Shown here in pieces: positions 2,602 to 63,450 of a stretch of DNA of 64,000 bases; position 1 is the stretch's first letter; every line of letters starts with the position of its first letter. The notes under the pieces were generated by a model, which made no database searches, was not told where the DNA came from, and worked only from the letters and a program-made list of their open reading frames with translations. Where the stretch lies: contig OZ220727.1 of NCBI GenBank assembly GCA_965116865.1, forward strand, positions 1,156,798 through 1,220,797. The letters are read 5' to 3'. Origin of the DNA: Acidimicrobiales bacterium. Its GTDB lineage: Bacteria > Actinomycetota > Acidimicrobiia > Acidimicrobiales > Aldehydirespiratoraceae. The position numbers were made by a program, and so were the translations under genes.

Positions 2602-2707
2602 CCGTCCGAGTATCGACGATCGGCCCGCACCCGGCAGCGACCGCTGCCCCGAACCCGGCAATGACCGCGAACACCGCCCGAGTATCGACGATCGGCCCAC
2701 GCCCGGC
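2602..2707. repeat. X-Y-X junction repeat, period 72 bp
   Basis: The segment ccg(t/c)ccgagtatcgacgatcggccc.c.cccggc occurs at 2602-2635 and 2674-2707, between tRNA-Arg and tRNA-His. Confidence 0.85.
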
Positions 2708-2753
2708 TTCCGGCGGCTGCGGTACACTGTGCATCGCCCGCTTCGGCGGTCGT

Positions 2754-2828
2754 GGTGGCCGTAGCTCAGTCGGTTAGAGCGCCGGGTTGTGGTCCCGGAG
2801 GTCGGGGGTTCGACTCCCCTCGGTCACC
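2754..2828 (+). tRNA. tRNA-His (anticodon GTG) with encoded G-1
   Basis: Acceptor GTGGCCG/CGGTCAC, with G-1 (2754) opposite C73. D-arm GCTC-AGTCGGTTA-GAGC, anticodon loop TTGTGGT, T-arm GGGGG-TTCGACT-CCCCT. Confidence 0.9.
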
Positions 2829-3026
2829 CGCCCCCTCCCCTGTGCGGAGTCGTCGGTGCCGCCGCGGTCGAAGTCGACGGGTCCCGCCGTGGTCGGGAGA
2901 TGGGCCTTGGGAAGCGTCGCGGCTGCGGCCGGGCGACGCTGCAACCATCGGCAGCGCATGGGCCGACAACACCGCACCTACCGAGCCACGCGACTGGAGT
3001 ATCCGGGCTAGCCTGGAAGCTTGCAA

Positions 3027-3100
3027 GCGCCTCTAGCTCAATCAGGCAGAGCAACGGACTCTTAATCCGCAGGTTCTGGGTTCGAGTCCCAGGGGGCGTA
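3027..3100 (+). tRNA. tRNA-Lys (anticodon CTT)
   Basis: Acceptor GCGCCTC/GGGGCGT, with G1-T72 and T6-G67 wobbles. D-arm GCTC-AATCAGGCA-GAGC, anticodon loop CTCTTAA, T-arm CTGGG-TTCGAGT-CCCAG. Confidence 0.8.
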
Positions 3101-3233
3101 CTTACGCAAATGCAGGGACCATCGCAGGCAGGGGAAGCCGTCGGCACCAGGCTAGGCTGTAAGCGCCGGTCGGGCTCCGCCCGGTGGTGCAGGTCTGGAT
3201 GGACCTCGTGCAGGCGCGAAGGGTGACGCCGAC

Positions 3234-4130
3234 ATGGACCGCTACGCGATATTCGTAGACGCCGAGTTCCTCTACCGAGAGGGCGGCGTGCTGTGCTGCA
3301 ACAGCCCGGACCGGCAAGAGATCCTCCTCTACGCCCTAGGCGCCAACGACTTCCTCGTCGGTCTCGCGACTGAGGTCTGCGATCTCCGGCCGCTTCGCAC
3401 CTATTGGTACGACACCTCGAGCGACGGGGCGCCGACCCCGGCCCAGCAGATGGTGGCGACGCTTCCCGACATGAAGCTGCGACTCCAGACCGGCGCCGGC
3501 CAGGACTCGCAATCGTCGCTGGGCGCGGCGATCCGGCGCGACCTGTCCACGCTGGCCCGCGAGCGGGCCATCTGCGACGCCTTCCTGCTGACGGACGACG
3601 AGGATCTGCTCGACTGCGTCCTCGAGGTCCAGGACCAGGGACTGCGGGTGACCCTGATCGACATCGCGTCGCATGGGGAGAGCGGGGAGGGGCCGGCCAG
3701 ACTGGCCAACGAATCGGACGAGGTCATCAAATTGACCAAGGACGATCTGTCGAGGTTCATCAGACGCCGACGCACTCCCGACGACGCTTCTGCCGACACC
3801 TACGACCCGGTCGACTCGGTCGCCGCAGCAGCGGCAGCCTTCGCCGAGAACTGGCTCTGCCAGGCCAGCGACGACGAGTTCTACGCCATGCTCGGCCATC
3901 GCCCCCGCATACCCGAATCGCTGGACGGCGACCTGCTCTACGCTGTCGAGAACGTGATCGGTGGAAGCCTGCGAGGCCAGGACCGCCTCAGGATCGCTGT
4001 GCGCCAGGCCTTCTGGAACAGGATCGAACAGGAGATCGAAGGACTGGCCCCTGAACCGGTGCGGTCTGCGGCACGGGAGGCGGGACCGCCGAACCGCACA
4101 CGGATGAATCAGTCCGCGGGACCGCGGTAG
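3234..4130 (+). CDS. NYN (LabA/DUF88-like, PIN-fold) domain protein with uncharacterised C-terminal half
   Basis: N-terminus MDRYAIFVDAEFL and the later segment AFLLTDDEDLLDCVLEVQDQGLRVTLI match the acidic-residue pattern of NYN ribonuclease-like domains. 298-aa ORF. Confidence 0.65.
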   Translation: MDRYAIFVDAEFLYREGGVLCCNSPDRQEILLYALGANDFLVGLATEVCDLRPLRTYWYDTSSDGAPTPAQQMVATLPDMKLRLQTGAGQDSQSSLGAAIRRDLSTLARERAICDAFLLTDDEDLLDCVLEVQDQGLRVTLIDIASHGESGEGPARLANESDEVIKLTKDDLSRFIRRRRTPDDASADTYDPVDSVAAAAAAFAENWLCQASDDEFYAMLGHRPRIPESLDGDLLYAVENVIGGSLRGQDRLRIAVRQAFWNRIEQEIEGLAPEPVRSAAREAGPPNRTRMNQSAGPR

Positions 4131-4163
4131 CGGCCTCGGTTCTGAACGCCCGCCGCCGTCCGC

Positions 4164-5123
4164 TCAGCCGTCGGCCGCCGGAGCAGGTGCCGGCCCGCGC
4201 CGCGCTCCGAGAGCACGCAGCAACGCCCTCCGCCCAAGTGGCGGCATCTCCGCCGCCTGACCGGGCCCGCGCCGCGCTCCGAGAGCACGCAGCAACGTCT
4301 GCACCGTGAGCACGGCCAAGAACACGACGACGGTGGCGAGGGCCATGGTGGCTCCGGCTGCGGTGTCGTAGTGATAGCTGGCCAGCAGGCCGACCACCAC
4401 GGAGCCGATCCCGACCGCGGCTGCGACGACCATGATGCGCGGCACCCGCCGCACGAGCAGCACGGCAGTGGCCGGAGGAGCGATGAGGAAGGCGAACACC
4501 AGCAGGTTCCCCACGGCCTCGAACGATGCGATGATCGAGACGGCCAGCAGCACCAGCAGCACACCGTGGGCGAGACGGGGACGGAGGCCGAGGACCTGGG
4601 CCTGGGCGTGGTCGAACGTCATGACCAGGAACGCCCGATAGAAAACGACGACCCCGCCCACCGAGAGGACCGCCGCGACAGCCTGGCGGCGGAGGTCGCC
4701 CGCGTCCACTCCGGTGACGGACCCGAACAGGAAGCGGTTCAGGTCCCCGACGTAAGCTCCCGACGAACTGGACATGATGGCCACGGCTAGGGCCAGGAAA
4801 CCGACGAACAGCACCCCGATGGACGTGTCCTCCGGCAGCGGTGAGCAGCTGCGGATCATGTTGATGCCGCACACCATGGCGATGGCCGCCACGAAGGCGC
4901 CGATGGTGGTGTCGACCCCGATGATGAACGCCAGCGCGATCCCGGGAAGCACGCCGTGGGCCAGCGCGTCCCCTAGGAAGCTCATGCCCCGCAGCACTAC
5001 CCATGTGCCCACGACCGACGTGGTGAGGACCGCGAGCAGGCCCGCATAGAGAGCCCGGCGCATGAAGATGTTGGATGTGAACGGGTCGACCCACCACGAC
5101 ATGGGGTCGGTCAGGAACTCCAC
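4164..5123 (-). CDS. znuB: metal (zinc-type) ABC transporter permease, ABC-3 family
   Basis: 319-aa polytopic ORF typical of ZnuB/MntB/TroC permeases, directly downstream of the binding-protein gene. The C-terminus is extended in frame by the 72-bp repeat (LLRALGARRGP appears twice). Confidence 0.8.
   Translation of the reverse strand: MEFLTDPMSWWVDPFTSNIFMRRALYAGLLAVLTTSVVGTWVVLRGMSFLGDALAHGVLPGIALAFIIGVDTTIGAFVAAIAMVCGINMIRSCSPLPEDTSIGVLFVGFLALAVAIMSSSSGAYVGDLNRFLFGSVTGVDAGDLRRQAVAAVLSVGGVVVFYRAFLVMTFDHAQAQVLGLRPRLAHGVLLVLLAVSIIASFEAVGNLLVFAFLIAPPATAVLLVRRVPRIMVVAAAVGIGSVVVGLLASYHYDTAAGATMALATVVVFLAVLTVQTLLRALGARRGPGQAAEMPPLGRRALLRALGARRGPAPAPAADG
4190..4297. repeat. X-Y-X junction repeat, period 72 bp, inside the 3' end of znuB
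   Basis: The segment ggcccgcgccgcgctccgagagcacgcagcaacg occurs at 4192-4225 and 4264-4297. Confidence 0.9.
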
Positions 5124-6398: not shown

Positions 6399-6410
6399 AC
6401 AACGACCTGG

Positions 6411-9922: not shown

Positions 9923-10264
9923 CCTGGAACGGACCTCAGAGCAAACGCAGACAGGCGAGAGTCCCAGCCCCATTCGCCGGTCACGCGCACCCTGCCCGCT
10001 GGAACGGACCTCAGAGCAAACGCAGACAGGCGAGAGTCCCAGCCCCATTCGCCGGTCACGCGCACCCTGCCCGCTGGAACGGACCTCAGAGCAAACGCAG
10101 ACAGGCGAGAGTCCCAGCCCCATTCGCCGGTCACGCGCACCCTGCCCGCTGGAACGGACCTCAGAGCAAACGCAGACAGGCGAGAGTCCCAGCCCCATTC
10201 GCCGGTCACGCGCACCCTGCCCGCTGGAACGGACCTCAGAGCAAACGCAGACAGGCGAGAGTCC
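9923..10264. repeat. 75-bp tandem array, 4.5 copies
   Basis: The segment ggaacggacctcagagc starts at 9926, 10001, 10076, 10151 and 10226. The last unit runs directly into dispersed-repeat copy 2. Confidence 0.95.
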
Positions 10265-20110: not shown

Positions 20111-21209
20111 GCTCGGCCGTCCCGCGGTCGCCGGCGCCGGCTACGGTGCGGCGCTCGCCGATCTCCCACCGGATCCGATAGTTGAGGAGCACGGCCACCG
20201 CCAGCGCTGCGAGAAGGATCAACGCCTGCAGGATCACCGAGATCGACGACTCCACACCGAGCGTCTGGATCGACTGGCCGCCGACCTGCACAGCGCCGAA
20301 CACGCAGGCCACCACGGCCACGCCGGAGGGCCGCATCAGCGCGAGCGCGGCCACGATGATTCCCGCGTATCCGTAGCCGTTCGACAGGCCGGGAGACAGA
20401 CGGCTGGCCGTCCCGGTCAACTCCACCGCCCCGGCCAGTCCGGCGATGGCTCCGGACAGCAGCAGAGAGACCAAGATCTTGCGCTCCAAGGAGATCCCCG
20501 CATAGCGCGCCGTCGCCGCCGACGATCCAGCGACCCGGAGCTCGTACCCCCAGGCGGTGCGCGCCACCGCCAGCCAGAACACGATCAGCAGCCCCGCCGC
20601 CATCAGCACACCGACATGCGCCCGACCGAACAGCACCGGCAAGGACGACTGGTCGGGCAGTTCGGCGATGACCGCGAACCCGAACGAGTCGGGATCCTTC
20701 CAAGGCCCCACCTCGAGCCATTCGACGATCCGGATCGACACCTCCACCAGCATCAGGGTGGTGATGATCTCGTTCACGTTCAGGTACGCACGGGCCAGCG
20801 CCGGCCCGACGGCGAGAACCAGTCCCCCCAGCGCGCCGGCGGCGACCATCACCACGATCAGCGGCGGCCCGGCGAGGTCCTCAGCCACTAGGGCGACGGC
20901 GGTGGCCAGCGTGGCGCCGGCCATCATCTGACCCTCCGCTCCGATGTTCCAGAGCCCCATCGACCCCGCCACCGCCACCGCCAGCCCGGTCAACGCCAGC
21001 GGGGTGGCCCTCACCAGGGTGCGCGACAGCGAGTCGGTCCCGCCGAGAGAGGAGTCCAGCATCCGCTCGTACACGGTGATCGGGGAATGGCCCGAAGCCG
21101 CCAGCAGGACCGCGCCCACCACGAGGGCCGCTCCGATCCCGACCAGGAAGGCGACGCCCTGCGCAGCCGGCACCACGCGCTCGCGCCGCTGGAGCACCGG
21201 AAGGATCAT
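20103..21209 (-). CDS. ABC transporter permease (BMP/nucleoside-type system)
   Basis: Polytopic ORF. The likely start is ATG 21209 (MILPVLQRRERVV). The upstream 53 codons of the track ORF are repeat read-through. Confidence 0.8.
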   Translation of the reverse strand: MILPVLQRRERVVPAAQGVAFLVGIGAALVVGAVLLAASGHSPITVYERMLDSSLGGTDSLSRTLVRATPLALTGLAVAVAGSMGLWNIGAEGQMMAGATLATAVALVAEDLAGPPLIVVMVAAGALGGLVLAVGPALARAYLNVNEIITTLMLVEVSIRIVEWLEVGPWKDPDSFGFAVIAELPDQSSLPVLFGRAHVGVLMAAGLLIVFWLAVARTAWGYELRVAGSSAATARYAGISLERKILVSLLLSGAIAGLAGAVELTGTASRLSPGLSNGYGYAGIIVAALALMRPSGVAVVACVFGAVQVGGQSIQTLGVESSISVILQALILLAALAVAVLLNYRIRWEIGERRTVAGAGDRGTAERV

Positions 21210-21368
21210 GGCCCCACCCGCACGGCGGCCCCGCGGCCGCGGAATGGTCCCGCAACTGCCAATGGGATCATGAGACGCACCCGCACGGCGGCCCCGCGGC
21301 CGCGGAATGGTCCCGCAACTGCCAATGGGATCATGAGACGCACCCGCACGGCGGCCCCGCGGCCGCAT
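21201..21368. repeat. 63-bp tandem array (2.4 copies) between the ATPase stop and the permease start
   Basis: Units start with acccgcacgg at 21216, 21279 and 21342. Each unit ends gggatcatgagacgc, mimicking the permease start region ggaaggatcatg. Confidence 0.9.
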
Positions 21369-27566: not shown

Positions 27567-27673
27567 GTCGCCGGGGTCTTCGGCGGACTGATTCGAGTTC
27601 GTGCGCGCGGCGCGCCGAAAATCGTCCAGCCCCTCGAGTCGCCGGGGTCTTCGGCGGACTGATTCGAGTTCGT
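27567..27673. repeat. X-Y-X junction repeat, period 71 bp
   Basis: The segment gtcgccggggtcttcggcggactgattcgagttcgt occurs at 27567-27602 and 27638-27673, between the Fic start and tRNA-Pro. Confidence 0.9.
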
Positions 27674-27771
27674 CTCACACCGAGTCCCGGCAGACTCGGC
27701 AGCGGGCCACGCAGACCGAGACTCATCGCGCTTGGGGGCATGATCGTGCATCGGTAGCCTGACGAGTCGCT

Positions 27772-27845: not shown

Positions 27846-27853
27846 CCCTTGTC

Positions 27854-29560
27854 ATGAGCCCACTTCACGAAGCCCAGCGCAGGGCCGACGCGATCAAGCG
27901 ATATCTAGCGCCCGAGTCGTTGGAAGACGCTCTGGACGTGCTCGCGACGCGCGGCCCCTCGGCACGGGCCATCGCCGGCGGCACCGACCTGCTGTTGGAA
28001 CTCAGCCGCGGCGCGCGGACCGGCATCGACACCCTCGTCGATCTGAGCGTGCTCGACGGGCTCGACACCATAACCGAGCACCGTGAGCGGGTCGAGCTGG
28101 GGCCCCTCGTCACCCACGCCGATGTCGTCGGGTACGAGAGGATGCCGTCGGTGGGACTGCCGCTCGCGCAGGCCTGCCTGGAAGTCGGAGGACCGCAGCT
28201 CCGCAACCGGGCCACGGTCGCCGGCAACATCGTCACAGCCAGTCCCGCCAACGACACTGTCTCCGCTCTGTACGCGCTCGGCGCCGACGTGACCGTCTCA
28301 TCAGCCGGAGGCGGCAACCGGACCATGCCGATCTCGGACTTCCTCACCGGTTTCCGCACCACCGCGCTGCAACCGGGCGAACTGGTGACCAGGATCGCCT
28401 TCGACGTCTTGGGAGGCCCCCGGCGGGGGATCTTCGTGAAGCTCGGGCTGAGGAGGGCGCAGGCCATCTCGGTGGTCCACGCCGCCGCGGTCGTCACCGA
28501 AGACAGCGACGGCGCCGTGGCCGACCTGGTGGTGGCTCTCGGAAGCGTCGGCCCGACCATCGAACTGGTGGACGCAGCCGTCGGCATAGCCAGGGGCCGG
28601 CGCCTCGCCGCCGCCGCCGCCGACGTAGCGGCCGCGTCACGGGCTGCGGTCACACCCATCGACGACCTGCGCGCCACAGCCGAGTACCGCAGCCGCACGG
28701 TCGAGGCAGTGGTGGAACGAGCGCTGCGCTCGCTGGCGGCCGGCACCGAGGCCGCCACCTGGCCGTATCGGCCTCCGCGCCTCGCGGCGGCCGCCCGCCC
28801 CGCAGCAGCGCCCGCGCCAGCGACCGACGGCGCCTCGCGGCGGGAGGACGCCGACGACAGCGCCGCCACCCGCGACGTGCTCACGGGCAGCGCCGTCGCC
28901 ACGGGCTCGCAGCGGGAGATCACCGACGGCAACACCATCACGGCGACCCACACCCCCGGCTGGCAGCTCCACCGGCCAGACGTTCGGGAGATCACCGACG
29001 GCAACACCATCACGGCGACGGTCAACGGCGTCGAGCGCCGCGCTGCCAACGCCGCGGGGCGCACGCTGCTCGACTGGCTGCGACTCGACCTCGGACTGAC
29101 CGGCACCAAGGAGGGCTGCGCCGAGGGCGAGTGCGGCGCCTGCACCGTCCATCTCGACGGCCGAGCCGTGCTGGCGTGTCTGGTGCCGGCCGCCCGGGCC
29201 GCCGCCGCCAGCGTCACCACGGTCGAGGGTCTGGCCTCGCCGGACGGAGCGCTGCATCCGGTCCAGCAGGCCCTGGCGGACTGCGGGGGCGTCCAGTGCG
29301 GCTTCTGCACCCCCGGGTTCGTGATGAGCGCCGCCATGCTGGCCGAGGAGGAGCCCCACCCGAGCCGGGCACAGGTGGAGCACGGTCTGGCCGGGAACCT
29401 GTGCCGCTGCACGGGGTACTACTCGATCATCAACTCCCTCACCGACAGCGACGCGTCCCCCGCCGCCGACACCACACCGCGAACCGGCAGCCACAAGCCC
29501 TCGAACGGGACTCCCCCGCCGCCGACTCCCACCGACGCGTCCGGAGCGGCCGGGCTGTGA
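27854..29560 (+). CDS. fused FAD-binding (CoxM/XdhB-like) and [2Fe-2S] (CoxS/XdhC-small-like) subunit of a molybdenum hydroxylase
   Basis: The N-terminal half has AIAGGTDLLLEL and other FAD-binding features. The C-terminal part has GCAEGECGACTV, QCGFCTPG and NLCRCTGY. An Ala/Pro-rich linker contains a 72-bp duplication. Confidence 0.85.
   Translation: MSPLHEAQRRADAIKRYLAPESLEDALDVLATRGPSARAIAGGTDLLLELSRGARTGIDTLVDLSVLDGLDTITEHRERVELGPLVTHADVVGYERMPSVGLPLAQACLEVGGPQLRNRATVAGNIVTASPANDTVSALYALGADVTVSSAGGGNRTMPISDFLTGFRTTALQPGELVTRIAFDVLGGPRRGIFVKLGLRRAQAISVVHAAAVVTEDSDGAVADLVVALGSVGPTIELVDAAVGIARGRRLAAAAADVAAASRAAVTPIDDLRATAEYRSRTVEAVVERALRSLAAGTEAATWPYRPPRLAAAARPAAAPAPATDGASRREDADDSAATRDVLTGSAVATGSQREITDGNTITATHTPGWQLHRPDVREITDGNTITATVNGVERRAANAAGRTLLDWLRLDLGLTGTKEGCAEGECGACTVHLDGRAVLACLVPAARAAAASVTTVEGLASPDGALHPVQQALADCGGVQCGFCTPGFVMSAAMLAEEEPHPSRAQVEHGLAGNLCRCTGYYSIINSLTDSDASPAADTTPRTGSHKPSNGTPPPPTPTDASGAAGL
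28914..29019. repeat. X-Y-X repeat, period 72 bp, in frame inside the CoxM-CoxS linker
   Basis: The segment gggagatcaccgacggcaacaccatcacggcgac occurs at 28914-28947 and 28986-29019. The protein reads REITDGNTITAT twice. Confidence 0.9.
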
Positions 29561-34188: not shown

Positions 34189-34595
34189 CCCCCACAGCCC
34201 CCATCCTCACGCATTTCTCGATACTCCTCCACGCGAAAACTCCCACCAACCACACGATCCCGCGGATCCAGCGCCGCCGTCGCCGTGACGCTCACGGCCC
34301 GCCACCGCCGCCGCAGCCGACACCTGCGCAGCCGACAGCGCCGCCATCGCCGACCTCGACACCACCAACATCTCACGCAACTCCGAACACGACGCCGCGC
34401 CCGCGCCCACCAGCTCCAGCATCTCGGAGGCAGCGGCCTCGGCCCGACGAGCGGCTTCGATCAACATGCACACAGCATCCCACAGGGGTATGACATCCAC
34501 CCCCCACAGCCCCCATCCTCACGCATTTCTCGATACTCCTCCACGCGGAACTCCCACCAACCACGCGATCCCGCGGATCTAGCGCCGCCGTCGGT
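33957..34595. repeat. 311/312-bp tandem duplication covering the 5' end and upstream region of the HNH gene
   Basis: The segment cagcgccgccgtcgccgtgacgctcacgg starts at 33957 and 34269, with a third partial start at 34580. By eye the copies are about 97% identical. Confidence 0.9.
34207..34500 (-). pseudogene. duplicated N-terminal fragment of the DUF222/HNH gene
   Basis: MDVIPLWDAVCMLIEAARRAEAAASEMLELVGAGAASCSELREMLVVSRSAMAALSAAQVSAAAAVAGRERHGDGG is nearly identical to residues 1-76 of the 32155..34188 product. It then diverges and stops. Confidence 0.8.
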
Positions 34596-34662
34596 TGTCG
34601 TGGTCATCTTCGACGACCTCGTCGAGGCCATCCATGCGGTTCCGCGGATCTAGCGCCGCCGC
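34571..34662. repeat. X-Y-X junction repeat, period 71 bp
   Basis: The segment ccgcggatctagcgccgccg occurs at 34571 and 34642. Confidence 0.75.
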
Positions 34663-34719
34663 CGTTGCCGTGTCCGTCGGTTCGGGGCCCCGGGCTGTTG
34701 CCGCGCGCCGACCGGTTGG

Positions 34720-35742: not shown

Positions 35743-35850
35743 GCGCGCCGCGCGGCGCTCCGCGGTCAAGGCCCGCACCCGAATCGCTGCTGCCTGCCTC
35801 GCTCACGGCTCACGCGCGCCGCGCGGCGCTCCGCGGTCAAGGCCCGCACC
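35743..35850. repeat. X-Y-X repeat, period 71 bp, disrupting the IS110 transposase frame
   Basis: The segment gcgcgccgcgcggcgctccgcggtcaaggcccgcacc occurs at 35743-35779 and 35814-35850. Confidence 0.9.
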
Positions 35851-36218
35851 GCCGCCGTCAACCAGATCAAAGCGCTGTTGGTGACCGCCCCCGAGCAGAT
35901 CGCCGCCCCGCTGCGGGGCCTTCGCACCGCCGCTTTGGTCGGTGCCTGTGCTCGACTGCGGCCCGATACCGCCGGCGGCGAGGCTGCCGGCGCGGCGAAG
36001 AGGACCATGCGCGGCCTGGCGCGACGGCACCGGGCGCTCAGCGGCGAGATAGACGAGCTCGACGCTGAGATCGCCCGCCTGTGCATGCAGGCGAATCCCG
36101 CTTTGATGGCCGCGCCCGGCGTCGGCGCGCAGACTGCCGCCGCGCTGCTCGTCGCCGCTGGCGACAACCCGCGGCGCCTGCACAGCGAGGCGTCCCTCGC
36201 GGCGCTCTGCGGAGCCGG

Positions 36219-36306
36219 CCCCATCGAGGCGTCCTCGGGGCGCACAATGGCTGTCCTCGTGGGCCGCGACAGCCAGTCGCCCCATCGAGGCGTCCTCGGG
36301 GCGCAC
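36219..36306. repeat. X-Y-X repeat, period 61 bp, disrupting the IS110 transposase frame
   Basis: The segment ccccatcgaggcgtcctcggggcgcac occurs at 36219-36245 and 36280-36306. Confidence 0.9.
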
Positions 36307-36765: not shown

Positions 36766-37026
36766 TACCGGCCGAGGCTAGTCAGGGGACCTCCGTCGAC
36801 AGCGTCGTGGTGTTCCCATACGGTGCCGAGTTCGAGGCACCGGCCGAAGCTGGTCAGAGGACCTCCGTCGACAGCGTCGTGGTGTTCCCATACGGTGCCG
36901 AGTTCGAGGCACCGGCCGAAGCTGGTCAGAGGACCTCCGTCGACAGCGTCGTGGTGTTCCCATACGGTGCCGAGTTCGAGGCACCGGCCGAAGCTGGTCA
37001 GGGGACCTCCGTCGACAGCGTCGTGC
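36766..37026. repeat. 72-bp tandem array (3.6 copies)
   Basis: The segment gacctccgtcgacagcgtcgtg starts at 36788, 36860, 36932 and 37004. Confidence 0.95.
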
Positions 37027-38392: not shown

Positions 38393-38467
38393 GTGCGGCC
38401 CCCTTGTTCTCTCCGGCACGGAACCGATCTGGGCATCGTCGCGCACCGACCGGATCCGTCTCTTCTA

Positions 38468-38819
38468 GCCGCGGCCGACGCACAACTGGGCGATCCCCCG
38501 CCGACCCAGCGTCGAGGCACCGACCACCCTCGGAATCCTCCTCAAGCCGCGGCCGACACACAACTGGGCGATCCCCCGCCGACCCAGCGTCGAGGCACCG
38601 ACCACCCTCGGAATCCTCCTCAAGCCGCGGCCGACACACAACTGGGCGATCCCCCGCCGACCCAGCGTCGAGGCACCGACCACCCTCGGAATCCTCCTCA
38701 AGCCGCGGCCGACACACAACTGGGCGATCCCCCGCCGACCCAGCGTCGAGGCACCGACCACCCTCGGAATCCTCCTCAAGCCGCGGCCGACACACAACTG
38801 GGCGATCCCCCGCCGACCC
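38468..38819. repeat. 78-bp tandem array (4.5 copies) in a divergent intergenic region
   Basis: The segment gccgcggccgac starts at 38468, 38546, 38624, 38702 and 38780. Confidence 0.95.
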
Positions 38820-39741: not shown

Positions 39742-40400
39742 GCCGCGGCGGCGAACTGCACCGCCAGAGGCTCGACACCGGAGCCTGCGACGTCGGCGAG
39801 CCGTCCGGGACCGACTATGCGGCCTTGACAACGCACCGCCAGAGGCTCACACCGGAGCCTGCGACGTCATCTGACAGCGTCGACGAGCAGCACCTCAGGA
39901 GTTCCCTCGCCGTCTGGCTCGTGCGCGTCCGCGACGGCGCCGACCCCGACCCGGTCGCCGCCACACGCTTCGCGGACGTGTCCGCCGACCATCCCCACGC
40001 CGCGTTCATAGAACGCTTCGCTCAACTCGAAGTCACCGAAGGCTGCCGCGACGGCACCCGCTACTGCCCCGACGACACCGTCACCCGTGCCCAGATGGCG
40101 AGCTTCCTGCACCGTGCCCGGACCCTGAAACTCCTCGAGCTCGACGACGCGCCCGCGCTGGAGGTGCTCCGAGCCGACCCGCACCTGGTGGGCACCTACC
40201 CGCCGCCGGTGGTCATAATGGCAGCGCCTCCCCGCGGTGTTCGACGCCGTGAGACGGGCCGTGGACGACGACCGCTCCCCGGGGCGGTTCCTCATCACCG
40301 GCTCAACCTCGCCCAAGCGGCCTCCGACCACCACTCTTCACGGCTGAGCCGATGCACGGCTTCGGCCACGACATCGAGCATGGTCGTGCCCCGCTGCTGA
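39738..40400 (+). pseudogene. composite remnant: SLH-like domain fragment followed by a fragment of a DUF4143-type AAA ATPase
   Basis: FADVSADHPHAAFIERFAQLEVTEGCRDGTRYCPDDTVTRAQMASFLHRA is SLH-like. In another frame at about 40240-40350, AVFDAVRRAVDDDRSPGRFLITGSTSP parallels residues of the 41708..43000 ATPase (GRPGQFILTGSAVP). Confidence 0.35.
39759..39868. repeat. X-Y-X repeat, period about 75 bp
   Basis: The segment caccgccagaggctcgacaccggagcctgcgacgtc occurs at 39759. The second copy at 39834 has a 1-nt deletion. Confidence 0.85.
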
Positions 40401-44004: not shown

Positions 44005-44550
44005 GGAAGACCCCCGCGTGGGCGGCGCCTCAGACGGTCCACCTCCTCGCAGACCCGGCGCTTGGGGAAGACCCCCGCGTGGGCGGCGCCTCACCCCCGG
44101 ATCCGTCGCAGCGCCTCTGTCGCGTTCATCGGCAAAGCGGTCCGCACCCGCGTGGGCGGCCCTTCACCCCCGGATCCGTCGCAGCGCCTCTGTCGCGTTC
44201 ATCGGCAAAGCGGTCCGCACCCGCGTGGGCGGCCCTTCACCCCCGGATCCGTCGCAGCGCCTCTGTCGCGTTCATCGGCAAAGCGGTCCGCACCCGCGTG
44301 GGCGGCCCTTCACCCCCGGATCCGTCGCAGCGCCTCTGTCGCGTTCATCGGCAAAGCGGTCCGCACCCGCGTGGGCGGCCCTTCACCCCCGGATCCGTCG
44401 CAGCGCCTCTGTCGCGTTCATCGGCAAAGCGGTCCGCACCCGCGTGGGCGGCGCCTCACTCCCGGATCCGTCGCAGCGCCTCTGTCGCGTTCATCGGCAA
44501 AGCGGTCCGTACCCGCGTGGGCGGCCCTTCACCCCCGGATCCGTCGCAGC
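44005..44550. repeat. tandem array, 8 X copies (first interval 61, then 75, then 72 bp x5), seeded on the HIT gene stop
   Basis: The segment acccccgcgtgggcgg / acccgcgtgggcgg starts at 44010, 44071, 44146, 44218, 44290, 44362, 44434 and 44506. The unit contains ccttcacccccggatccgtcgcagc, which is the last 6 codons plus the TGA of the HIT gene. Confidence 0.95.
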
Positions 44551-47188: not shown

Positions 47189-47464
47189 GAGCCGCTCCAA
47201 GGGGGCCGAGCCGCCCCAAGGAGGTCTCGTGCGGACGACTCCCTGCAGCCGCCGACGCCGGAGCCTCACCGTGCGCATCGCCCGCAACCGGAGAGGTCTC
47301 GTGCGGACGACTCCCTGCAGCCGCCGACGCCGAGATCTGGCAGCGGCGGCGCTGGTGCCCCAAGGAGGTCCCGTGCGGACGACTCCCTGCAGCCGCCGAC
47401 GCCGAGAGCTGGCAGCGGCGGCGCTGGTGCCCCAAGGAGGTCTCGTGCGGACGACTCCCTGCAG
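47189..47464. repeat. repeat-spacer-like array, period 72 bp (X 40 bp, Y 32 bp), in the thrS/fabI divergent region
   Basis: X (gaggtctcgtgcggacgactccctgcagccgccgacgccg) occurs at 47221, 47293 and 47365, with a partial copy at 47437. Y1 at 47261-47292 differs from Y2 and Y3 (47333, 47405), which differ from each other by 1 nt. Confidence 0.9.
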
Positions 47465-48350: not shown

Positions 48351-48353
48351 GCA

Positions 48354-48546
48354 TCCCGAGCACCGGATCCGCCGAGCGTCGGACAATCTCGGCTTGCCGC
48401 CTCCGGCTCGCCCCATGGTGCGAACTCGGCAACGGAGCGGGCTCCAGAGCGTCCCGAGCACCGGATCCGCCGCGCGTCGGACAATCTCGGCTTGCCGCCT
48501 CCGGCTCGCCCCATGGTGCGAACTCGGCAACGGAGCGGGCTCCAGG
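48354..48546. repeat. 98-bp tandem duplication (about 2 copies) between convergent genes
   Basis: The segment tcccgagcaccggatccgcc occurs at 48354 and 48452. Confidence 0.9.
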
Positions 48547-48595: not shown

Positions 48596-49654
48596 TCACG
48601 GGCCGCTGTCGTCGGTCTCGTCGAAGATGTCGCCCACCAGGCCCTCGAGGATGTCCTCCAGGGTGACCACGCCCAGCATGCGCCCGGTGTCGCTTCGCAC
48701 CAGAGCCATGTGAACTCGCGACCGCCGCATGTCGAGCAGGAGGTCGCGACCGGCCATATCAGGGCCCACCACCCGCATGCGGCGCACCAACTCCAACGGC
48801 AGCGGATCGTCGCAGGCCTCCTCCGGCATGCGGATCAGGTCCTTGGCGTGGACGAACCCCAGCACGTCGTCGGGTTCCGACCCCCACATCGGGATCCGGG
48901 TGTGTCCGGTGGCGGCCACCACATCCTCGAGTCGGGCCGCGGACGCCCCCCGGGGCACGGACACCAGCCGGTCGGCGGGCACCATCACCGATCCGACCGA
49001 CTGGGCACGGAACTCCAGCGCGCCCGACAGCAACTCGTGCTCGGTGGGCTCGATCACGCCCTCCTCGCGGGCGCCCGCGAGCAGCGTCCGGAACTCGTTG
49101 ATGGTGAGCGCGGTGTTGATCTCGTCCACCGGATTGATGCCCATCAGGCGCACGATGCGGTTCCCCACGAAGTTGAGGGACGCGATGACCGGTCTGAACA
49201 CTGCACCGTAGATGCGCATGGCCGGCGCCAGCAGCCGTGCCGACGCCTCCGGCTCGGCAATGGCCATGTTCTTGGGGACCATCTCGCCCACCACCACATG
49301 CAGCGTCGTCACCACGAACAGCGCCACCGCGAAGGAGATCGTGTGCAGGACGCCGGACGGAACCTCCACGACCCTCTCGATGACCGGCTCGATGAGGTGG
49401 GCGATGGCCGGCTCGGCCACATAGCCCAGCACCAGCGAGGCCATGGTGATGCCGAACTGGGCTCCAGCGAGCTGGGTCTGCAGGTCGCGCACCGCTGCCA
49501 GGGCGATGCCGCTGCGCCTGTCGCCGTCGGACGCGGCCGCCTCCAAGCGAACAGCACGGGCCGCGACCAGCGCGAACTCGGCCGCCACGAAAAAGGCGTT
49601 GGCCCCGAGCATCACCACCGCCACAACCAAGGCTACGACCGTCGCCGTGCTCAC
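48596..49654 (-). CDS. CNNM/CorC/TlyC family protein (DUF21 + CBS pair)
   Basis: GTG 49654 gives VSTATVVALVVAVVMLGANAFFVAAEFALV (DUF21), followed by CBS-pair-like regions. The track ORF start at 49849 lies inside the repeat. Confidence 0.8.
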   Translation of the reverse strand: MSTATVVALVVAVVMLGANAFFVAAEFALVAARAVRLEAAASDGDRRSGIALAAVRDLQTQLAGAQFGITMASLVLGYVAEPAIAHLIEPVIERVVEVPSGVLHTISFAVALFVVTTLHVVVGEMVPKNMAIAEPEASARLLAPAMRIYGAVFRPVIASLNFVGNRIVRLMGINPVDEINTALTINEFRTLLAGAREEGVIEPTEHELLSGALEFRAQSVGSVMVPADRLVSVPRGASAARLEDVVAATGHTRIPMWGSEPDDVLGFVHAKDLIRMPEEACDDPLPLELVRRMRVVGPDMAGRDLLLDMRRSRVHMALVRSDTGRMLGVVTLEDILEGLVGDIFDETDDSGP

Positions 49655-49876
49655 CGCGACACCCCCGAACCGACCAAGCACCGACCCCGCCGAAAAAAAC
49701 AGCCCACAACCGTCGCCGCGCTCACCGCGACACCCCCGAACCGACCAAGCACCGACCCCGCCGAAAAAACAGCCCACGACCGTCGCCGTGCTCACCGCGA
49801 CACCCCCGAACCGACCAAGCACCGACCCCGCCGAAAAAACAGCCCGCAACCGTCGCCGTGCTCACCGCGACACCCC
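49636..49876. repeat. 70/71-bp tandem array (3.4 copies) seeded on a GTGA stop/start junction
   Basis: The segment g(t/c)gctcaccgcgacaccccc occurs at 49647, 49718, 49788 and 49858. The A7 tract at 49693-49699 contrasts with A6 tracts in the other units. Confidence 0.95.
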
Positions 49877-51235
49877 CGGTGCTGCCGGGCCGCACCCGTC
49901 CCTTCGCCCCAGCGCGGGCGCGGCTACGGATACGACAGGCGCCGCCACCCGGACAGCGGCGATCCTCAAACGGTCGACAGCCACCACCTCGAGGCGCCAG
50001 CCGTCCACGGTGACGACCTCGCCGGGCACCGGTATGTGGCCCAGCCTGTCCAGCACCAGCCCGGCCAGCGTCTCGTAGCCGCCTTCGGGCATGGCGAAGC
50101 CGGTAGCGTCGAACACCTCGTCGGTGTGCAGCGACGCGGACAGCACCGTCGAGCCCCGGGACTCGGACCGGGTGCGCTCAGGGGTGGACGAGTCGTGCTC
50201 GTCGTCGATCTCACCGACGATCTCCTCAAGCACGTCCTCGAGGGTGATGATCCCCGCCGTGCCGCCGTGCTCGTCGACCACCACGGCCAGCAGACCCGCG
50301 CCGGCGCGCAGGTCGTGCAGGATGTCGTTGAGATCGCGGGACTCGGGCACGGCAAGCACCGGCTGCATCAACTGCGACACCGGCGTGGAATGCCGTTGCG
50401 GCCCGGGCACGGCGAACAGCGATTTCACATGGACCACGCCGGCCACGTTGTCGAGATGGCCCGCCGTGACCGGAAACCGGGAATGGCCGGTGCCGACGGC
50501 CAGTTCGGCGAGGTAAGCCACCGAGGCGTCGGCCTCGATGGCGACCACCTCCACCCTGGGCACCATGGCGTCGTCGGCCTGCTTGTCGGCCAGGCGGATC
50601 GACCGGGTGAGCAGCCACACCTCGTCCTCGTCGAGCATCCCCCCCTGCCCCGATGAAACGAAGAGGTGTTCGAGTTCGTCGCGATCAGGCACCGTGTCTA
50701 TCTCCTCGCGCGGCTCCATGCCGAGTCGGCGCACCATCCAGTTGGCCGCGCCGTTGAGGAAAGCCACCACAGGCCGGGCCAGCACGCCGTACACGGTGGT
50801 CGGAACGGCCACCGCCACCGCTGTCCCGAAGGGCTTCGTGGTGGCCACCGCCTTGGGGACGAGCTCGCCCATCATCATCTGCACGATCGTGGCCAGCATC
50901 AGCGCGACCGCGACGGACACGCCCGAGGGCGTGTTGCCCCCGAACAGCGCCTCGACTCCGGGCGCAATCATCGGCGCCAGGGCCGGTTCGACCATGAAGC
51001 CGAGAAGCAACGACGAGACCGTGATGCCGATCTGCGCGCCCGACAGGTGAAACGACAGCCGGGCCACCAAGCGCTGGACCATCCGGGCCCGGCGGTCTCC
51101 GGCCCCTGCCCGTTCGTCCACTCGGGTGCGGTCCACCGCCACCAGCGCGAACTCCATGGCGACGAAGAAGGCGTTGGCTGCCATCAGCGCGAGAGCGGCC
51201 AAGAGCCACAGCGCGGTCTCTATCGGTCCTCCCAA
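49862..51235 (-). CDS. CNNM/CorC/TlyC family protein (DUF21 + CBS pair + CorC_HlyC)
   Basis: N-terminus LLAALALMAANAFFVAMEFALVAVDR, then CBS-like segments and the C-terminal transporter-associated domain. 457 aa. Confidence 0.85.
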   Translation of the reverse strand: MGGPIETALWLLAALALMAANAFFVAMEFALVAVDRTRVDERAGAGDRRARMVQRLVARLSFHLSGAQIGITVSSLLLGFMVEPALAPMIAPGVEALFGGNTPSGVSVAVALMLATIVQMMMGELVPKAVATTKPFGTAVAVAVPTTVYGVLARPVVAFLNGAANWMVRRLGMEPREEIDTVPDRDELEHLFVSSGQGGMLDEDEVWLLTRSIRLADKQADDAMVPRVEVVAIEADASVAYLAELAVGTGHSRFPVTAGHLDNVAGVVHVKSLFAVPGPQRHSTPVSQLMQPVLAVPESRDLNDILHDLRAGAGLLAVVVDEHGGTAGIITLEDVLEEIVGEIDDEHDSSTPERTRSESRGSTVLSASLHTDEVFDATGFAMPEGGYETLAGLVLDRLGHIPVPGEVVTVDGWRLEVVAVDRLRIAAVRVAAPVVSVAAPALGRRDGCGPAAPGVSR

Positions 51236-52708: not shown

Positions 52709-53110
52709 TTGCATCTCGCTATTCTCAGTGCTAAGGTGGAGGATGTGCAGACGCTCTCATTCGCAGACCTGGCGCCCGTGCTCGCCGCCGTCCTCGGACC
52801 GATACTGCTGTTAGCGGTCACGATCATGCGCTACCAGCACGTCGACAGCACCAAGACCCGCGACCTCATCGACCGCAACCGCGAAGCCAGCGAACAAGCC
52901 CACAAAGAAACCCGCGACCTCATCGACCGCAACCGCGAAGCCAGCGAACAAGCCCACAAAGAAACCCGCGACCTCATCGACAAGAACTATCGGGAGATGG
53001 TCAGCGGCCTCGGACGCGCCGATGCGCGACTGAGCCGCATAGAGGGCACCCTGGGTATTCTGTCGGCGACTGCTCACAACGTGGACGACAGCGGCACCGA
53101 GGCAGCCTGA
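52709..53110 (+). CDS. small membrane-anchored protein with 18-aa tandem repeat
   Basis: One TM segment, LAPVLAAVLGPILLLAVTIM. TRDLIDRNREASEQAHKE occurs 2.3 times, encoded by a 54-bp repeat at 52856-52981. AAGGTGGAGG lies upstream of the alternative GTG starts at 52736 and 52745. Confidence 0.55.
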   Translation: MHLAILSAKVEDVQTLSFADLAPVLAAVLGPILLLAVTIMRYQHVDSTKTRDLIDRNREASEQAHKETRDLIDRNREASEQAHKETRDLIDKNYREMVSGLGRADARLSRIEGTLGILSATAHNVDDSGTEAA

Positions 53111-53147: not shown

Positions 53148-53325
53148 GTCGTTCCGGAGGACCGCGACCTGACGGCACCGCACCCCCGGGCTCCGGAACC
53201 TCACCGGCATGTTCCTCGCAGACCGTGACCTGACGGCACCGCACCCCCGGGCTCCGGACAAGCCCGCAGCCTCATGAGGCAAGTCGTTCTGGAGGACCGC
53301 GACCTGACAGCGCCGCGCCGGTGCC
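53148..53325. repeat. three-copy X-Y repeat (intervals 61 and 74 bp) between convergent genes
   Basis: The segment gaccg(c/t)gacctgac(g/a)gc(a/g)ccgc occurs around 53161, 53222 and 53296. Confidence 0.75.
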
Positions 53326-55380: not shown

Positions 55381-55492
55381 GCCCGCGCAACAGAGACAAC
55401 GCCTGTGGTTGTCGCACCTTGAAGATCTCGTCGGCGGTCATGCGCCGCACGGAGCCCGCGCAACATAGACAACGCCTGTGGTTGTCGCACCT
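55381..55492. repeat. X-Y-X junction repeat, period 73 bp, seeded on the stop of the 55491..56912 gene
   Basis: The segment gcccgcgcaaca(g/t)agacaacgcctgtggttgtcgcacct occurs at 55381-55419 and 55454-55492. Each X carries the hairpin gacaac-gcctgtg-gttgtc. Confidence 0.9.
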
Positions 55493-56912: not shown

Positions 56913-56936
56913 GAGGTGGCGACGGATCTGAACCGG

Positions 56937-57010
56937 TGGGCGATACTGGACTCGAACCAGTGACCTCTGCCGTGTGAAAGCAGCACTCTAGCCATCTGAG
57001 CTAATCGCCC
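56937..57010 (-). tRNA. tRNA-Val (anticodon CAC)
   Basis: The reverse complement reads GGGCGAT-TA-GCTC-AGATGGCTA-GAGT-G-CTGCT-TTCACAC-GGCAG-AGGTC-ACTGG-TTCGAGT-CCAGT-ATCGCCC-A. Confidence 0.9.
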
Positions 57011-57103: not shown

Positions 57104-57194
57104 GTCCGGTCAGACCGCGTCGGGGGCGATGGTCCGACCGCATCGCCGTTGCCGCCGCCGGCGCCGTCCGGTCAGACCGCGTCGGGGGCGATGG
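57104..57194. repeat. X-Y-X junction repeat, period 62 bp, seeded on the amidase stop
   Basis: The segment gtccggtcagaccgcgtcgggggcgatgg occurs at 57104-57132 and 57166-57194. The second copy contains the amidase TGA (57172-57174). Confidence 0.9.
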
Positions 57195-60708: not shown

Positions 60709-60885
60709 GCAGAACAAAGCACGCGCGCGCACGCCATGCACGACCGGTGCGCGTGTTTGGACCGAACACGCGCACCGGTGGCAGAACAAAGCGCGCGCAC
60801 GCCATGCACGACCCCGGTGGCCCGGCCCCGGTGGACGGCCCGCAGCCGCGCAGAACAAAGCACGCGCGCGCACGCCATGCACGAC
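60709..60885. repeat. repeat-spacer-like array (X 36/32/36 bp, two unrelated Y of 36 and 37 bp) in the murF/ddl divergent region
   Basis: X (gcagaacaaagc(ac)gcgcgc(gc)acgccatgcacgac) occurs at 60709, 60781 and 60850. Y1 (60745-60780) is a perfect 14-bp-stem hairpin. Y2 (60813-60849) is unrelated to Y1. Confidence 0.9.
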
Positions 60886-62048: not shown

Positions 62049-62139
62049 CAGGCCGATCGGCGCGCCGTGCATGGCGAGCGGCCCGTGATGCCGGTGGATT
62101 CAGGCTCCATCAGAAGTCGGCCGCGCTCGGCAGCAGGCT

Positions 62140-62403
62140 TCATCGAGACCTGCAGACGTCGCGGCGATGGCCGACGCGGATCACATGGATCACCAGGCGC
62201 TCGCCGATGACCTCATACAAGATCCGATAGTCGCCGACGCTCACCCGATACACGGACTCCTCACCCGCGAGAGCGACACAGTTCGGAGGCCTCGGCTCGT
62301 CAGCCAGCAGGTCTATCGCGGCTCGAACACGGCGCTGTTCGTGACGGGGCGCGGTTGGAGTTGGTGTTACCGCGTTCATTCGTCGCAGCATCGCCGGGGT
62401 CAC
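62140..62403 (-). CDS. relE: RelE/ParE-family toxin, N-terminally atypical and without a cognate antitoxin gene
   Basis: C-terminal YRVSVGDYRILYEVIGERLVIHVIRVGHRRDV is the canonical RelE/ParE core. The N-terminal strand and helix are replaced by repeat-derived sequence. Confidence 0.6.
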   Translation of the reverse strand: MTPAMLRRMNAVTPTPTAPRHEQRRVRAAIDLLADEPRPPNCVALAGEESVYRVSVGDYRILYEVIGERLVIHVIRVGHRRDVCRSR

Positions 62404-62459
62404 GGCCTCGACGTCCAGTCAATAGTTGGAGTTGGTGCTACCGCGTTCATTCGTCACAG
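62354..62459. repeat. X-Y-X junction repeat, period 71 bp, at the relE 5' end
   Basis: The segment gttggagttggtg(t/c)taccgcgttcattcgtc(g/a)cag occurs at 62354-62388 and 62425-62459. X contains an ATGA stop/start junction on the minus strand. Confidence 0.9.
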
Positions 62460-62520
62460 TGTCTTGAGACCGGCTGAACTGGAGAGATTTCGTATGATGT
62501 TCCACCCTCGCCGAGGCCGC

Positions 62521-63279
62521 TCACCCAGCCTGACCCTCAGCCGCTCCGGGTTGGATGTCGAGGAGGGGGCCGAGCTCCCGGAGGCGGGCGCGTCGTATGC
62601 GGTAGTCGGGCACGGCCTGGGCGACCACAGCCCAGTATTCGGGCGTGTGGCCGCGGACGCGCAGGTGTGCGAGCTCGTGGGCGATCACGTAGTCGAGGAG
62701 GGCGGGCGGGGCCATGACGGCACGCCAGTTGAAGCGCAGCGTGCCGTCCGGGGCGCAGCTCGCCCAGCGGCGGCGCTGACCGCGGACGAGGACCGCTTTC
62801 GGCTGCGCGCCGAGGAGGCTCGCGATGCGCTCCACGCGCGGCGGGAGCTTCAGCGCGGCGCGGTCGCGGTACCACGCCTCGAATGCGGCCCGCACCTTCT
62901 CGAGCCGTTCCTCGCCTCGCAGAAAGCGGGGGACGCCGACGTCGAACTCCCAGTGGTGGAACCCGACCTCGACCCTGGCGCCGTCGATGGGATGCACGGT
63001 GAGGCGCACCGACCGGCCGAGATAGGGCAGGGACTCGCCGCTGACGAACCGGCGGGGCGGTGCGCACGCCGTGGCCGCGCCGTCGTGCCGGACGATCCAG
63101 CCGGCACGGCGACGCACAGTCTCCTCGACTTGCTCCGCAGGCGTGTCGACAGGCGCCGCCACCCTGACGACACCGGGCGCATCGACGGTGACCTCGATCG
63201 TCTTGCGCCGTCTCGGGCTGCGGACGACCTGGTACTCGATCCGGGCTTCGCCGAAGACGACCTCCCCGCGCTCTGTCAC
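62521..63279 (-). CDS. DUF45/YgjP-like (M48-type) zinc metallopeptidase
   Basis: The HELAHL zinc motif lies within LDYVIAHELAHLRVRGH. The real start is GTG 63279 (VTERGEVVFGEARIEYQVVRS). This gene type is a common companion of type I R-M systems. Confidence 0.8.
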   Translation of the reverse strand: MTERGEVVFGEARIEYQVVRSPRRRKTIEVTVDAPGVVRVAAPVDTPAEQVEETVRRRAGWIVRHDGAATACAPPRRFVSGESLPYLGRSVRLTVHPIDGARVEVGFHHWEFDVGVPRFLRGEERLEKVRAAFEAWYRDRAALKLPPRVERIASLLGAQPKAVLVRGQRRRWASCAPDGTLRFNWRAVMAPPALLDYVIAHELAHLRVRGHTPEYWAVVAQAVPDYRIRRARLRELGPLLDIQPGAAEGQAG

Positions 63280-63450
63280 ACGAGCCTCTTGCGGGCCATC
63301 TCCATGACCTTCGAGCACCGCGACGACGACGCCGTACAGGCCCGCGTCACACGAGCCTCTTGCGGGCCATCTCCATGACCTTCGAGCACCGCGACGACGA
63401 CGCCGTACAGGCCCGCGTCACACGAGCCTCTTGCGGGCCATCTCCATGAC
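63275..63450. repeat. 71-bp tandem array (X-Y-X-Y-X) seeded on the hsdR stop / DUF45 start GTGA junction
   Basis: X (gtcacacgagcctcttgcgggccatctccatgac) occurs at 63275, 63346 and 63417. Y (cttcgagcaccgcgacgacgacgccgtacaggcccgc) occurs twice. Confidence 0.95.

Follow-up and report, generated by a model that had tools for sequence, protein, structure and literature searches.

Short tandem arrays of an Acidimicrobiales chromosome as probable scars of off-target Cas1–Cas2 spacer integration

The chromosome of a bacterium from an uncultured genus of the Acidimicrobiales carries hundreds of short direct-repeat arrays which, as far as the larger of their two classes is concerned, are very probably scars of off-target spacer integration by Cas1–Cas2, the adaptation proteins of CRISPR systems, and which were in part amplified later. 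The arrays were noticed in a stretch of 64,000 nucleotides (genome C1:1156798-1220797), referred to as the window in the following. An initial annotation of the window had described 21 arrays which share the geometry X-Y-X, that is a segment X standing on both sides of a segment Y and also terminating the array, and had offered two explanations, a MIRU-like (mycobacterial interspersed repetitive unit) family of variable number tandem repeats (VNTRs) or ectopic Cas1–Cas2 integration with lengths of 28+33 and 36+36 bp. The genome-wide analysis supports the second explanation by a resident type I-G adaptation module, by source copies of the inserts, by a protospacer adjacent motif (PAM), by junction-like target sites and by empty sites in relatives.

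Geometry and abundance of the arrays

When applied to the window, Tandem Repeats Finder (TRF) reports eight arrays with periods of 63-78 bp, each ending on a fractional copy of 0.4-0.6. This program catches only arrays of about 2.5 copies or more, and most arrays of the window are X-Y-X units of about 1.5 copies. We therefore wrote a dedicated direct-repeat scan and ran it over the whole genome (one contig of 3,324,494 bp with 68.5% G+C, called G000 in the comparisons with congeners), recording repeats of 20 nt or more that were spaced by 25-400 bp. The nearest named record to the organism is a metagenome-assembled genome (MAG) labelled Acidimicrobiaceae bacterium SB0677_bin_3. All 21 arrays of the window were recovered with the periods described before and with starts differing by a few bases.

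The clustering of the periods at 61-63 and 70-75 bp which had been noted in the window appears as two sharp peaks in the genome-wide spacing scan. The main peak is at 72 bp (278 repeats), accompanied by 73 (117), 74 (69), 71 (57) and 75 bp (38), and the second peak comprises 61 (51), 62 (24) and 63 bp (25); most other spacings have counts of 0-20. We considered whether the canonical CRISPR array of this genome, which has 146 repeats, inflates the 72-bp peak. This can be ruled out, since the array adds only about 24 of the 582 hits, and it was left out of the scar counts after this first spacing scan.

The length of X is restricted as well. At spacings of 70-76 bp X measures 36-39 bp in 284 of the 582 loci and at spacings of 60-64 bp it measures 28-31 bp in 61 of 122. 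At 1-bp resolution the modes are 36 and 28, with an abrupt onset at these values and a decay to the right, as would be seen if a fixed duplication were prolonged by chance extension. No peak of X length is present for periods of 30-58 bp, and repeats of other periods have no preferred phase. It had been proposed to compare the phase of the terminal copy with a uniform expectation; it is not uniform, being fixed near 36 or 28 bp. Two geometries can thus be distinguished, a 36-bp target duplication with an insert of 35-39 bp (72-class or I-G class below) and a 28-bp duplication with an insert of 32-35 bp (61-class or I-E class).

Strict criteria yield 450 loci and looser criteria 742. The strict set accounts for 58.7 kb of inserted DNA, i.e., 1.8% of the genome, at about one locus per 7 kb, and the loci are evenly spread along the chromosome (about 10 per 50 kb).

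The scan also returned repeat families which are coding and unrelated to the scars. A family with a period of 186 bp (34 loci, e.g., 81185, 425398 and 701784) encodes 62-residue repeats resembling SLH domains, and a family of 360-363 bp is clustered in a few very large repetitive genes (77983-80459; 824524-830565).

The resident type I-G CRISPR-Cas locus

The initial annotation had correctly reported that the window holds no cas gene: the CRISPR array starts about 138 kb past the window end, and the distance to cas2 and cas4/1 is about 149 kb. The only Cas1 of the genome is a Cas4g/Cas1g fusion of 549 aa (NF049935, 754 bits). Its neighbours are Cas2 (34.7 bits), a Cas3-extension protein, Cas3g, Csb2 (Cas5/6g) and Csb1 (Cas7g), and the locus is of type I-G. 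For Cas8g (Csx17) the model TIGR04113 gave no match at this locus, though the TIGR04113 control also matched nowhere. The usual place of cas8g (genome 1378290-1380194) is taken by a 358-aa open reading frame (ORF) without family match and by ORF fragments, followed by a methionine aminopeptidase gene. Possibly the large subunit is divergent, replaced or lost.

The CRISPR array adjoins cas2 (genome 1358520-1369103), so that the proposed search of the genome for cas1/cas2 and for 36-bp repeats found both an adaptation module and an array. All of its 146 repeats are exactly 36 bp long and 145 are identical; the degenerate one is the most distant from cas2, so that the leader is assigned to the side of cas2. 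The spacers measure 36 (66), 37 (32), 38 (29), 35 (10) and 39 bp (6). The canonical repeat sequence is confined to this array, and the scars are not a canonical CRISPR array, each locus having its own X and no one repeat being shared. The lengths agree, though: the mode of the scar X is the resident repeat length of 36 bp, and the spacings rank as 72>73>74>71>75 just as the spacers rank as 36>37>38>35>39.

The canonical spacers did not match any phage, and a comparison of the array with 39 congeners gave repeat-to-repeat or partial chance matches only. The canonical spacers are thus uninformative on the PAM, which was therefore deduced from the stray inserts. None of the 145 canonical spacers matches the own chromosome, compared with 19% of the stray inserts. 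This is as expected if self-targeting is lethal in a real array and harmless between unprocessed, locus-specific "repeats".

Origin of the inserts

It had been suggested to compare the Y segments with the genome itself. For 87 of the 450 strict loci Y has a near-full-length identical copy elsewhere in the chromosome, in 56 cases at a unique site outside of any array. The sources are distributed uniformly along the chromosome, 85% lie in genes, and their distance to the scar is as in a random draw. Four arrays of the window could be traced in this way: the Y of array 35743 (35779-35812) is identical in 34/34 positions to genome 805584-805617, that of array 44005 (44031-44065) in 35/35 to genome 972161-972195, that of array 53148 (53197-53229) in 32/33 to genome 2326689-2326721 and that of array 57104 (57133-57164) in 32/32 to genome 2100384-2100415. 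Compared all against all, the Y segments gave 29 pairs, nearly all of them inside a few multi-copy elements. A comparison of the window with phage databases returned only a tRNA-Pro and an amidase/lysin gene, and no Y segment; of these hits the one to tRNA-Pro alone was close to an array.

The source matches also delimit Y independently of the repeats. In the main class the insert bounded in this way is mostly 34-38 bp long, and 32 of 48 loci have a duplication of 35-37 bp (mode 36). The short class has inserts of 32-34 bp and duplications of 27-29 bp (mode 28). The sequence T[A/T]N is found on one side of the source in 20 of 38 I-G-class cases, against a background of 6% (p ~1e-14), and on both sides in one case. 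We consider this to be the PAM of the I-G class. Among the sources of the 61-class it occurs in 0/23.

Target sites and empty sites

We then looked for sequence features of the target sites. The sites with X = 36 show a weak symmetric signal which resolves into a one-sided motif: AGCNG, whose last G is the first duplicated base, is present at one end in 31/102 of these sites against a background of 1.5% (p ~8e-32), and at both ends in 1/102. The motif was replicated in the independent set with X = 37 (22/98, p ~7e-14), and it occurs in 1/43 of the 61-class sites. The canonical leader ends with AGCG and the repeat begins with G, i.e., the leader-repeat junction matches the target motif AGCN|G. 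In the oriented targets a purine at +5 and a G at +31 are enriched, both as in the I-G repeat, and the information in the motif reaches 0.68 bits compared with at most 0.12 bits per position in a shuffled-position control. Overall, the resemblance between the 36-bp targets and the I-G repeat is marginal (12.1 vs 11.6 matches, p = 0.046). To judge from these sites, target recognition by the I-G system would consist mainly of the junction and a 36-bp ruler.

Empty sites in relatives, for which a comparison had been recommended, are seen directly. The junction of cas4/1 and cas2 (genome 1369570-1369678) itself carries X(36) + 37 bp + X(36) in this genome and a single X in five congeners. This single X holds the stop of cas1 and the start of cas2, and both genes remained intact despite the stray insertion, as stop and start are each present twice after the duplication. 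At the window arrays 28913 and 49638 the relative L054 (ThrS 90% identical) has one X and no Y. The reverse case was found too, a scar of the congener G047 corresponding to an empty site in this genome.

These results decide between several readings. A MIRU-like VNTR family, that is a dispersed minisatellite of common origin which sits at operon junctions and varies by slippage, would agree with arrays that are short, mostly intergenic or at gene ends and present in 1.5 to about 16 copies. The shared geometry without shared sequence, however, was borne out throughout the genome: the units of different loci have no common consensus, Y segments match each other only in the few multi-copy elements, and the terminal partial copy is constant at 36 or 28 bp. 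Moreover Y is foreign to the locus, with identical copies in unrelated distant genes, and relatives have X without Y. We reject such a family as extremely improbable.

Plain tandem duplication by slippage or unequal crossing-over with a mechanical length preference, for example of about seven helical turns, could be proposed because periods of 61-63 and 72-74 bp are near 6 and 7 helical turns, and the later amplification of the units is probably slippage. But this process would give integer copy numbers and microhomology and not a constant extra copy of 36 bp, Y is not native at the locus in relatives and has its source in distant genes, there are a PAM and a target motif, and some arrays have different Y segments between the same X. 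The helical-turn explanation was dropped given the source copies and the empty sites, and we consider this alternative highly improbable; plain duplication is refuted as founding event and stands only as an amplification step.

As the genome is a single-contig, MAG-like assembly from long metagenomic reads, an assembly artefact was considered as well. Assembly errors can yield neither 36-bp duplications around exact copies of distant genes nor a PAM, a junction motif or conservation of the reading frame inside genes, and the chance of this explanation is practically negligible. Off-target integration by Cas1–Cas2 thus remains the preferred reading.

Scars in related genomes

Strict-geometry counts per 400 kb (360 kb for G047) were compared among congeners; the genomes are few and related, and the counts describe a pattern and are not a statistical test. 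The present genome, with I-G adaptation genes, has 42 scars of the I-G class and 13 of the I-E class. G047, which by thrS (88% identical nucleotides) is nearest among the closed congeners, has I-G and I-E genes with 10 and 2 scars, and G005, also with I-G and I-E, has 4 and 0. G017 (I-G) has 2 and 0, and neither class occurs in G006 (I-G) or in G018, which has no Cas1. Scars are therefore present at low density in several I-G genomes, with this genome being the extreme, and as a pattern the scar density follows the presence of the I-G system. With G006 and G018 being free of such loci in 400 kb each, chance or GC content are excluded as the cause. About 1.4 Mb of thrS-centred loci (at most 22 kb each) from 80 other genomes did not contain this geometry.

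We also looked for a lesion in Cas4/1 or Cas2 that could explain promiscuity and found no obvious defect: Cas4/1 shares 92-96% identity with its counterparts in six congeners, and Cas2 shares 90% with the one in G047. The identity of the Cas4/1 proteins among congeners (92-96%) can be set beside that of the thrS gene (84-88% at the DNA level, 90% at the protein level for the nearest relative). Possibly the I-G locus moved between these species recently. G047 contains in addition a separate dispersed repeat family starting with TTCTCGGGTTGG, with close direct copies at 60-71 bp (e.g., sample positions 129143, 199603, 212653 and 222032), which is unrelated to the scars.

Selection, amplification and reuse of sites

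By our own, conservative gene calls about 77% of the genome is coding, yet only 21% of the scars lie within a gene. The in-gene scars have a period divisible by 3 in 84% of the cases, compared with 47% elsewhere. The preference of X for gene boundaries that had been described for the window thus holds, and the best explanation for it is that insertions within genes are selected against, not that boundaries are targeted. Where 36 bp are duplicated at a junction, neither the stop nor the start is lost, so that the location of X at gene boundaries would mainly be a selection filter.

In 160 of the 450 strict loci (about 36%) two or more units with near-identical Y are present; their number is distributed roughly geometrically and reaches about 16 units. 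We infer that such arrays were amplified by slippage or unequal exchange between the copies of X. At about 40 candidate loci, a few of which are ordinary coding repeats, Y differs between the copies of one X. Examples are a 28-bp X that occurs six times around five different 33-bp Y (genome 3308530-3308863), four copies of a 28-bp X with three different 33-bp Y (genome 3259025-3259236) and three copies of a 28-bp X with two different 33-bp Y (genome 1864313-1864463). Different Y segments at one X are repeated integrations, by which small CRISPR-like arrays are born away from the cas locus.

Origin of the 61-bp class

The 28+33 geometry is that of type I-E systems. Cas1e was found above the curated cut-off in 4 of the 39 congener species searched, and the congener G047 has an I-E array with 28-29-bp repeats and a period of 61 bp beside an I-G array with a period of 72-74 bp. 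The 28-bp targets of the present genome resemble the I-E repeat of G047 with a mean best match of 12.9/28, compared with 9.4 for random sequences (p = 1.5e-11); the similarity resides mainly in the GC-rich stem positions, and the cross-controls were null. These sequence similarities suggest that the 61-class is probably the footprint of an I-E adaptation module which was lost or is unassembled.

Proposed mechanism and points against it

We infer the following course of events. The I-G Cas4/Cas1 fusion together with Cas2 would capture a fragment of 35-39 bp, often DNA of the own chromosome beside T[A/T]N. The ends of the fragment would then be joined to the two strands 36 bp apart, at an edge resembling the AGCN|G junction, and gap filling would duplicate the 36-bp target and produce X(36)-Y(~36)-X(36). 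The units X(28)-Y(~33)-X(28) would have arisen likewise, with a type I-E Cas1–Cas2, absent from the present assembly, in the place of the I-G complex. Later on, slippage or unequal recombination between the X copies could amplify the X-Y unit to at most about 16 copies, new integrations into an X already used could add other Y segments and thereby form small true CRISPR-like arrays, and gene-breaking insertions would be purged, with scars staying between genes, at gene ends or in frame.

Several observations weigh against this proposal. For about 80% of the inserts no source could be identified. The side of the PAM and the side of the junction motif are uncoupled (7 vs 9 among the 16 informative sites), so that directional integration is not demonstrated at these sites. 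G006 has a Cas4/1 with 93% identity and yet no scars in 400 kb, from which it follows that having the enzyme is not sufficient. In the present assembly neither Cas1e, Cas2e or Cas7e nor an orphan I-E array was found. Finally, the 61-class is not older than the 72-class as judged by the identity of the X copies.

The last two points, together with the finding that both classes are interleaved at some loci, would also fit an origin of the 61-class from the I-G complex working in a second mode, or from an I-E module on an unassembled plasmid, in place of a lost chromosomal I-E system. That one enzyme made both classes is contradicted by the 28-bp targets, which are similar to the I-E repeat of the congener and not to the I-G repeat, by the 61-class having neither the AGCN|G motif nor the T[A/T]N PAM, and by duplication and insert lengths which shift together as for a different Cas1–Cas2 ruler. 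These arguments bear on the same-enzyme version only and not on the plasmid version. Taken together we consider this alternative unlikely, and a former I-E module remains our reading of the 61-class.

The scar-free genome G006 could likewise be taken in favour of another, non-Cas1 integrase or a transposase which makes staggered cuts of 36 and 28 bp and inserts short DNA. We know, however, of no transposase with target duplications of this size. The lengths of duplication and insert are those of the resident I-G array and of the I-E array of the congener. In addition the target motif is the leader-repeat junction of the array and the PAM is of the I-G kind (PMC6547450). Such an enzyme is therefore very unlikely, and Cas1–Cas2 is retained as the probable integrase.

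Arrays of the window

In the following the arrays are given in window coordinates; strand is entered as "." throughout. Scars of the plain X-Y-X form are found at 2606..2707 (spacing 72, one unit, X about 30-36 bp with 93% identity), between tRNA-Arg and tRNA-His, at 4192..4297 (spacing 72, one unit, X 34 bp), at 27567..27673 (spacing 71, one unit, X exactly 36 bp), at 28913..29019 (spacing 72, X 35 bp; one of the empty sites of L054), at 35743..35850 (spacing 71, X 37 bp), at 55381..55492 (spacing 73, X 39 bp) and at 62354..62455 (spacing 71, X 31 bp with 97% identity). The I-E geometry is represented by 21203..21366 (period 63, 2.6 copies, X 26-28 bp), 36218..36306 (spacing 61, X 28 bp, Y 33 bp), 44005..44093 (spacing 61, X 28 bp) and 57104..57194 (spacing 62, X 29 bp).

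Amplified scars are located at 9924..10264 (period 75, 4.5 copies, 100% identical, terminal X 41 bp), 36767..37025 (period 72, 3.6 copies) and 38460..38819 (period 78, 4.6 copies, terminal X 41 bp), the latter with a spacer length at the upper tail. An amplified scar of I-G geometry (44074..44550, period 73, 6.5 copies, terminal X 39 bp) is abutted by array 44005. Two more are found at the 5' end of a membrane-protein gene (49638..49878, period 70-71, 3.4 copies; likewise an empty site in L054) and within the 3' part of a long gene (63275..63450, period 71, 2.5 copies, 100% identical).

That Y segments may differ inside one array could be confirmed at 47221 and 60709. Array 47221..47464 consists of one X in four copies at a spacing of 72 bp, and its first Y is unlike the second and third, which indicates two separate integrations at one site with one unit being duplicated later. 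In array 60709..60885 a 36-bp X is present in three copies with spacings of 68 and 73 bp and two different Y. Array 53148..53319, with one X in three copies at spacings of 61 and 74 bp, mixes the I-E and the I-G geometry.

Two of the 21 arrays, although present, are weak members with an X of just 20 bp, namely 34571..34661 (spacing 71) and 39775..39868 (spacing 74). The first of them is part of a multi-copy element spanning window 34500-36300, which also carries array 35743 as a whole and array 36218 and which has further copies near genome 1986.6-1987.2, 2174.1-2175.5, 3169.3 and 1102.4 kb. As these three arrays ride in the element, some scars have been multiplied by the element and not by new integration. 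The insert of array 55381 (55421-55454) has about 40 dispersed matches in the genome (27-32 of 28-34 nt) and belongs to a short dispersed repeat family.

The window also contains ordinary tandem repeats which are not of the X-Y-X kind, most of them inside predicted genes: 5725-5858 (18 bp x7), 24092-24320 (15 bp x15), 32754-33416 (nested 21/54/57/291 bp), 33957-34593 (312 bp x2), 14904-14990 (45 bp x1.9), 48342-48545 (98 bp x2.1) and 52856-52981 (54 bp x2.3). The 45-bp repeat at the 5' end of ppc, which had been listed along with the arrays, is thus an ordinary tandem repeat, as are the repeats at 48342 and 52856. Five tRNA genes (Arg, His, Lys, Pro and Val) are located at 2508-3101, 27771-27848 and 56935-57010.

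Implications and comparison with known systems

Spacer integration is regarded as tightly confined to the CRISPR leader, stray integration being mutagenic, and to our knowledge natural off-target events have hitherto been isolated or circumstantial. The scars would present an enzyme of immune memory as a genome-wide mutator in one natural lineage, with hundreds of fixed scars. It is conceivable, and we propose it with reserve, that this lineage carries a naturally promiscuous or de-regulated CRISPR adaptation machinery which is still active chromosome-wide. If this were true, the target would need little beyond AGCN|G, and the machinery would be the main source of the tandem repeats of this genome, a route to new multi-spacer arrays and the cause of in-frame insertions that add 24 residues to dozens of proteins; moreover, a type I-E system lost since could be read from the scars as from a fossil record. 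Some of the neo-arrays may be expressed and used.

The scars would also constitute a large natural data set on target choice (AGCN|G and a 36-bp ruler for I-G, repeat-like sites for I-E) and on prespacer choice including self DNA with a PAM, and they illustrate the path from a scar to a VNTR-like array and to a small new CRISPR array. The quantised lengths of X and Y could serve as a simple screen for past CRISPR activity which is independent of cas genes and includes lost systems. Much of what annotation tools list in such genomes as "tandem repeats" or "questionable CRISPRs" would have this origin.

With mycobacterial MIRU/VNTR loci the arrays share their shortness, the intergenic location at gene junctions and the variable copy number. 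MIRUs, however, are one sequence family, whereas every unit described here is different, the terminal half-unit is fixed and the insert is imported.

Closer parallels are found in CRISPR adaptation. The Cas4/1 fusion of the Geobacter I-G system acquires spacers of predominantly 36 bp, and a TTN PAM accompanies 50% of the spacers that are unique and naive (Almendros et al. 2019, PMC6547450). Canonical type I-G adaptation (PMC6547450; PMC10504553) is thus similar in its 36-bp spacers, in a T-rich 5' PAM on about half of the unique naive spacers and in the same gene set. It differs in that the target is the array, in that the PAM is strictly TTN in contrast to T[A/T]N here, and in a coupling of orientation and junction which is unseen in the scars.

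Off-target sites of the Pyrococcus furiosus Cas1–Cas2 in vitro share a few features of the repeat and of the leader-proximal region and have a fixed spacing (PMC6698737); that assay used a plasmid in vitro, whereas the scars are a natural record shaped by selection. Off-target acquisition is also one proposed origin of isolated repeat-spacer-repeat units far from cas genes (Shmakov et al. 2020, as cited in PMC13142298). Compared with those units, as far as they are described there, the present loci each have a unique native "repeat", occur about once per 7 kb and often contain self-derived inserts.

The nearest counterpart is the work with induced type I-E Cas1–Cas2 in Escherichia coli, where off-target integration duplicates a target of repeat length and seeds "neo-CRISPR" arrays, and where circumstantial natural cases were described for two further species (Nivala, Shipman and Church, Nat Microbiol 2018, according to bioRxiv 10.1101/148544 and, for E. 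coli, PMC6698737). According to these accounts insert of spacer length, duplication of repeat length, junction- or repeat-like sites and the reuse of a site which seeds an array are all common to both. The E. coli events were artificial, whereas the scars are natural, number at least 450 in one chromosome, derive from two subtypes (I-G and I-E), one of which is no longer present, and are often amplified to tandem arrays. A full-text literature search, in which Nivala 2018 and Shmakov 2020 were covered through citing papers, returned no natural genome with hundreds of such scars and no amplification into VNTR-like arrays. To sum up, the mechanism as such is already known. What appears to be new is that it acted on this scale, in nature and in subtype I-G, that inserts derive from the own genome and were amplified, and that a "ghost" of a type I-E system is recorded.

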